The position numbers and the translations under genes were made by a program. Of a stretch of 64,000 bases of DNA, positions 43,687 to 44,190 are shown in pieces; the first letter of the stretch is position 1; every line of letters starts with the position of its first letter. The notes beneath the pieces are model-generated. The model ran no database searches and was not told the DNA's origin. It saw nothing but the letters and a program-made list of their open reading frames with translations. The stretch covers positions 930,001 to 994,000 of the forward strand of contig JAUFOR010000003.1 of assembly GCA_040285745.1 (NCBI GenBank), written 5' to 3'. This DNA comes from Barthelona sp. PCE (Eukaryota).

Positions 43687-44190
43687 ATGAATCGTAATAG
43701 ACTTATGCACGAGCTCAATGAGCTTAGGACAGATCCTCCACGTATGTATTACTATGCTCCATTTCTCGAGGAGCCCCCTATTCGTATTGTCTAACATTTT
43801 GCAGGTGTATCAGCAGGCCCCGTTGATGGTGATCTTTTCCATTGGCAAGCAATGCTGCTTGGACCCGAAGATACACCATATAGCGGAGGTGTATTTATGT
43901 TGAATATCAGATTCGGCAATGACTACCCCTTTAGACCTCCCACAGTCCAGTTTGAGACAAGAATCTTTCATTGCAACGTAAACACTTCAGGGACAATATG
44001 TATATCAATCTTAAAAGATGAATGGAGTCCTGCCCTGACAATATCCAAGGTTCTGCTCTCTATAAGCAGTTTACTGGCAAAGCCAAACCCAGATGACCCC
44101 CTAGAAGCACGTGTTGCAGTTATGATGCGTGAGGATATGGATAAATTTGAAAAAACTGCTCGCGAATGGACAGCGAAATATGCATTATAA
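43687..44190 (+). CDS. ubiquitin-conjugating enzyme E2, UBC4/5 family, 2 exons
   Basis: [20 protein letters not shown]...[25 protein letters not shown]. Exon 1 reads [18 protein letters not shown]. Confidence 0.95.
43742..43801 (+). other. spliceosomal intron, 60 nt GT...TG (or 63 nt to CAG at 43804)
   Basis: GTATGTATT...TCTAACATTTTG(CAG). It contains an in-frame TAA, so it must be removed. Confidence 0.8.

Follow-up and report, generated by a model that had tools for sequence, protein, structure and literature searches.

Where does the intron of a UBC4/UBE2D-type E2 gene of Barthelona sp. PCE, a free-living, deep-branching anaerobic metamonad, come to its end? The terminal AG is among the most constant features of spliceosomal introns, and structural work explains it by the contacts that the 3′ AG makes with the 5′ G and with the branch adenosine. 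At the end of this intron the letters TTG,CAG (43799-43804, in the coordinates of the window, i.e., the whole 64-kb stretch of DNA that was analysed) put a TG immediately before a canonical CAG. The first-pass annotation had proposed that the intron ends in the TG, at a fixed distance of 6 nt after CTAAC, ignoring the CAG 3 nt downstream.

The E2 gene lies on the plus strand and contains a single intron. Exon 1 (43687..43741), with the start codon ATG at 43687, comprises 18 codons and ends in DPP plus one base, C, of a split codon, so that the intron is of phase 1; its N-terminus is nearly identical to that of a Barthelona paralogue, P0014 (147 aa). The undisputed part of exon 2 (43805..44190, stop codon at 44188-90) encodes the UQ_con domain (PF00179, 162 bits) and is 100% identical to the NCBI protein PCE1_001453 (P0002), and the best named E2 proteins among the matches listed belong to E2 D/E, with 62–67% identity. 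The intron opens with the 5′ splice site GTATGT (43742..43747), the same hexamer that opens the RPS21 and PP2A introns described below, and carries the branch-point motif TCTAAC at 43790..43795 (CTAAC at 43791-95), which in its extended form, CTAACATT, is common to all three introns. A six-base spacer, ATTTTG (43796..43801), comes next, placing TG at +5/+6 after CTAAC and AG at +8/+9. If the intron is cut after the TG, the proposed non-AG acceptor at the fixed distance, it measures 60 nt and the CAG (43802..43804) supplies the first three bases of the exon; in the deposited model, this CAG is the canonical acceptor. The sequence and coordinates given in the first-pass annotation are exact. Judged by these signals, the element appears to be a genuine spliceosomal intron of the kind in which branch point and acceptor are fused.

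Scripted splicing of the window reproduced the two products that had been claimed for cuts at 43801 and 43804, both of them in frame. Joining 43741 to 43802 yields 147 aa with DPP-PGV-SAGP, whereas joining 43741 to 43805 yields 146 aa with DPP-RV-SAGP and is letter-identical to the deposited P0002. Three residues between DPP and SAGP are a UBC4/5 feature, which the TG junction fits, while the CAG junction gives two. A regular expression applied to the 120 homologues listed matched 115 and gave no match in 5. Among these 115 readable homologues the loop has three residues in 114, as expected from the spacing that had been attributed to UBC4/5, and the sole sequence with two residues is the deposited P0002 itself. 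P0014, which is a second Barthelona E2 of the UBC4/UBE2D type, has three loop residues as well. When scored with a profile made from 60 homologues of 140–160 aa, the TG product reached 243.6 bits vs. 238.9 bits for the CAG product. The residues P, G and V occur at their respective loop positions in 1, 1 and 0 of the 114 three-residue homologues; because they are so rare there, the support for the TG product comes from its length and not from residue identity.

The window is gene-dense, almost without introns, and has a G+C content of 41.5%. Every GTAYGT donor and each of the 73 CTAAC sites on either strand was listed, and a looser donor/branch pattern was applied. Three clear introns were identified in the 64 kb, in the genes for E2, RPS21 and a PP2A-type phosphatase; the donor, CTAAC and looser-pattern scans revealed no further credible intron in the window, and Pfam searches of 25 window ORFs revealed no N-terminally truncated domains. 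The pattern GTATGT-N(24-54)-CTAACATT occurs at 3 sites in the window vs. 0.01 expected in shuffles, a figure that is descriptive since the pattern was written after the sites had been seen. The RPS21 gene (54895-55209, minus strand) contains an intron of 69 nt (55091..55159, minus strand), GTATGT...ACTAAC ATTAAG, with AG exactly 6 nt past CTAAC, and the deposited protein P0244 (81 aa) equals the two-exon model.

The PP2A-type phosphatase gene (5833-6797, minus strand) may depart from the AG rule in another manner. Exon 1 (6797-6702, minus strand) comprises 32 codons with clear homology to PP2A N-termini, and is followed by GTATGT at 6701 and later by GCTAAC, ATTTAT and TCAACTGAG, in this order. 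If cut at the fixed distance, the intron spans 41 nt (6661..6701, minus strand), ends in AT and contains no AG. The first AG lies at +15, i.e., 9 nt beyond +6 and in frame, so that nine bases (6652..6660, minus strand) are in dispute, coding for S-T-E under the former cut and intronic under the latter. A cut 6 nt past CTAAC gives a protein of 308 aa that aligns colinearly with all 79 homologues, and use of the first AG drops three columns that are filled in every one of the 79, the third column being E in 69 of them and in Barthelona too. Profile scores were 515.9 bits for the +6 product vs. 504.5 bits for the first-AG product. In the databases the gene is represented solely by P0124 (288 aa), a single ORF reading through the intron; because it starts at the ATG within GTATGT, exon 1 is missed, and the deposited model is probably that of a mis-modelled gene. 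The PP2A intron is the strongest case for a candidate non-AG acceptor.

In the window, the boundary that fits homology is found at CTAAC+6 in three of three introns, and the dinucleotide at this position is AG in one of them (RPS21), TG in E2 and AT in PP2A. In each of the three, ATT directly follows CTAAC; the final intron triplet varies (TTG in E2, AAG in RPS21 and TAT in PP2A). The observation on the E2 intron is confirmed, and it is strengthened by a second and stronger case, the AT end of the PP2A intron, together with a canonical control in RPS21. That the boundary recurs 6 nt after CTAAC, as the first-pass annotation had stated, holds for the window and agrees with the spacing in Trichomonas and Giardia (PMC2483917; PMC13548475).

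In these two organisms branch motif and acceptor are fused, CTAAC being separated from AG by four bases (PMC2483917), and 17 of 17 validated T. vaginalis introns read CTAAC-N4-AG (PMC13548475 Table 2). Like the fused introns of Trichomonas vaginalis and Giardia lamblia (GTATGT...ACTAAC-ACAC-AG), the E2 intron combines a GTATGT donor, CTAAC, a length of 60 nt and a homology-fitting cut 6 nt past CTAAC, and the genome is likewise compact and intron-poor. The RPS21 intron fits this type completely, terminal AG included: AG exactly 4 + 2 nt past CTAAC is found in RPS21 and is replaced by TG in E2. Unlike the introns of Trichomonas and Giardia, those of the window have ATT-NNN instead of ACAC-AG after CTAAC, and the dinucleotide at the fixed position is non-AG in two of the three (TG in E2, AT in PP2A). 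Since barthelonids have been placed beside Fornicata (excerpt of PMC13087550), a fused arrangement in the barthelonid ancestor may reasonably be assumed. We found no published description of barthelonid introns; in the genome paper, introns come up solely in the account of how the annotation was made, and five of its six supplementary files gave no match.

Based on these data, we propose that in Barthelona the second splicing step may be set mainly by the distance from the branch adenosine. The E2 mRNA would then be joined mainly 43741^43802, after the TG, yielding a 147-aa E2 with a normal DPP-xxx-SAGP loop, and the deposited 146-aa model would be an artefact of AG-only gene finders. We favor the TG as the main E2 junction tentatively, at a little less than an even chance. 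Actual spliceosomal ligation at the TG of E2 and at the AT of PP2A is what we infer. A purely ruler-based U2-type spliceosome, in which the 3′ site is placed 7 nt from the branch adenosine, AG is unneeded and GT-TG and GT-AT introns are constitutively spliced while their last bases drift, is conceivable, and we regard it as less likely than not.

Several observations argue for a junction at the fixed distance. It fits homology in two independent genes, E2 and PP2A; the AG that RPS21 has at +6 is used by its deposited model; the last three intron bases vary; and the CTAAC-N4-AG spacing is rigid in relatives (PMC2483917; PMC13548475). When the branch motif of a T. vaginalis intron was moved 2 or 7 nt upstream, splicing was abolished (excerpt of PMC6679479), and an AG at +9 or +15 should hence be hard to use. 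The same excerpt describes a Spironucleus Rps15 intron with an acceptor displaced by 15 nt, in which a stem-loop may shorten the distance (PMC6679479). RNA folding of the three window introns gave no significant structure (z-scores 0.22, 2.02 and −0.66), and a stem-loop that shortens the PP2A branch-to-AG distance was rejected, as none was predicted.

GeneMark-ET, AUGUSTUS and PASA are not known to accept junctions other than canonical ones. The Barthelona annotation was built with these three programs and RNA-seq-derived intron hints (PMC11316075); it made AG models for RPS21 and E2 and no two-exon model for PP2A, and the missing PP2A model is what one would predict had no canonical junction turned up in that gene. 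Against the fixed distance it may be held that U2-type introns end in AG almost without exception, that all T. vaginalis introns in PMC13548475 Table 2 end in AG, and that the deposited E2 model uses the CAG and may rest on RNA-seq hints. In addition, P and G of the TG reading are each found in 1 of 114 homologues at their positions, leaving length to carry the E2 case, and the sample consists of three introns from one 64-kb window. The protein cluster of P0002 has a single member, so that no transcript-derived isoform is on record, and the clusters of P0124 and P0244 have one member each; among the protein matches for E2, PP2A and RPS21 there were no transcript-derived barthelonid proteins. 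A metagenome scan with E2 exon 2 yielded two loci from 111 pattern matches, with 39% and 50% identity, neither of them barthelonid, and both were left out of the comparison.

The most probable alternative is that the acceptors have slid. An ancestral AG at +6 of the E2 intron would have mutated to TG, the CAG at +9 would now be used exclusively, and the true E2 would have 146 aa with a loop one residue shorter; PP2A would likewise use the AG at +15. We consider this quite possible, if clearly short of an even chance. It keeps AG as the general rule, and the deposited E2 model equals the CAG product. In E2 and PP2A alike, the downstream AG is the first one past the branch motif and is in frame, as selection would demand: being in frame is required if acceptors slid to the next AG, and has a chance of about 1 in 9 under a pure ruler, which counts against the fixed distance. 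Moreover, the E2 is a divergent paralogue that coexists with the more canonical P0014, and because of this coexistence a loop deletion may be tolerable. On the other hand, sliding means that two out of three introns lost their acceptors independently, although acceptor sliding is rare elsewhere, at ~4% of introns across oomycetes (excerpt of PMC5010894), which favors a fixed distance. It also demands a spliceosome that accepts +9 and +15 despite the rigidity seen in relatives (excerpt of PMC6679479), it deletes residues kept in 114 of 115 listed E2 and 79 of 79 PP2A homologues, and it leaves the RNA-hinted annotation without the GT-AG two-exon PP2A model. A further point against sliding is that the disputed PP2A codons diverge no more than their neighbours, in a Barthelona protein that is off-consensus at ~20–26% of well-conserved columns overall. 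Decay of these codons was rejected, as they do not stand out against the many consensus mismatches nearby; being about as well conserved as the codons around them, they do not decide between the two cuts.

A second alternative treats TG,CAG as a tandem acceptor. Both sites would be used, as in human GNAS intron 3, producing mRNAs that differ by three bases and isoforms of 147 and 146 aa in comparable amounts. Human TG acceptors are described solely as alternative sites that lie a few bases from a canonical AG, the classic case being GNAS intron 3 (CTG,CAG), with a TG fraction of 0.15–0.62, and the TTG,CAG of E2 has the form of the verified human TG-AG tandems of GNAS, CNBP, TNNT2 and CACNA1A (excerpt of PMC2374985). 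As in these tandems, the TG of E2 stands three bases upstream of the CAG and the products are one codon apart; given that the human tandems use both sites, the statement in the first-pass annotation that the CAG is ignored went too far (excerpt of PMC2374985). The human cases are rare (0.02%) and context-dependent, however, and in those described in this excerpt the TG is always the alternative site, with a distant branch point and a polypyrimidine tract (PMC2374985). In E2, by contrast, the TG lies at the lineage's canonical branch distance and the CAG is the off-distance site. A tandem also leaves the PP2A intron unexplained, where +6 is AT and the closest AG lies a further 9 nt on, and we judge it unlikely. 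If assembly or base-calling errors had converted genuine AG acceptors to TG and AT, all three introns would be canonical; yet nothing direct speaks for such errors, two substitutions must fall exactly on acceptor dinucleotides and the reading frames on either side stay intact for hundreds of codons, which makes this explanation very improbable.

U12-type introns carry the donor [AG]TATCCTT and the branch motif TCCTTAAC, and Dietrich and co-workers reportedly found that their 3′ site is chosen by distance, with several terminal dinucleotides tolerated. U12-type identity of the E2 intron itself was rejected, its donor GTATGTAT and its branch motif TCTAAC being the U2-type signal set. In U12-type introns the donor and branch consensus is strong and the distance from branch to acceptor is constrained (PMC2483917); the window introns resemble them in both respects and differ from them in their GTATGT and CTAAC motifs. 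The Giardia ferredoxin intron, whose 5′ boundary is a non-canonical CT, shows that in a related lineage, the introns of which have fused motifs, a terminal dinucleotide can depart from GT-AG; its departure is at the 5′ end, and no non-AG 3′ end is claimed for it, whereas the candidate departures in the window are at the 3′ end (PMC1201135).

The fixed-distance architecture as such is already known; what would be new is an intron that ends there in something other than AG, and this would be striking if general. If true, the rigid spacing of Trichomonas and Giardia would have been kept and the AG dropped, meaning that geometry alone can position the 3′ site, and reduced U2-type spliceosomes would be linked to the distance-based choice of the 3′ site by the minor spliceosome. 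Should a pure ruler operate, Barthelona would be the first lineage whose major-type introns are freed from the AG rule across the whole genome, and many of its gene models would misplace intron ends or lack introns. Gene finders restricted to GT-AG would mis-model such genes; for the window this would mean an E2 model that is one residue short and a PP2A model without its first exon.

Other features of the window were recorded as well. Two tandem copies of TTTCTAACATAAAA (8793-8825, minus strand) are located just upstream of a dual-specificity phosphatase gene (6912-8729); they contain CTAACAT, as in the intron branch motifs, and could represent the end of a 5′-UTR intron or a promoter word. 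The region 23037-26320 consists of ~2.5 tandem units of ~1.57 kb that are 94–96% alike, and 300 nt of the unit share 77% identity with 32513-32812, the region with the tRNA-Tyr gene (32715-32796). The end of a putative retroelement adjoins this tRNA gene: a reverse-transcriptase ORF (RVT_1; 26646-30440, minus strand) lies within 26582-32524, probably a retroelement, flanked by identical 104-nt direct repeats (26582-26685 and 32421-32524). An ORF of 1028 aa (59491-62577, plus strand) combines ODP metallo-beta-lactamase-like, flavodoxin, rubredoxin-like and pyridine-nucleotide-disulphide oxidoreductase domains, and by this domain content looks like a fused, O2/NO-detoxifying protein of the flavodiiron type; such proteins are typical of anaerobic protists. 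The gene just downstream of E2 (44418-45938, plus strand) has a weak match to a SAXO5-like stabiliser of axonemal microtubules (23.4 bits, below the Pfam cutoff of 27) and may be flagellar.
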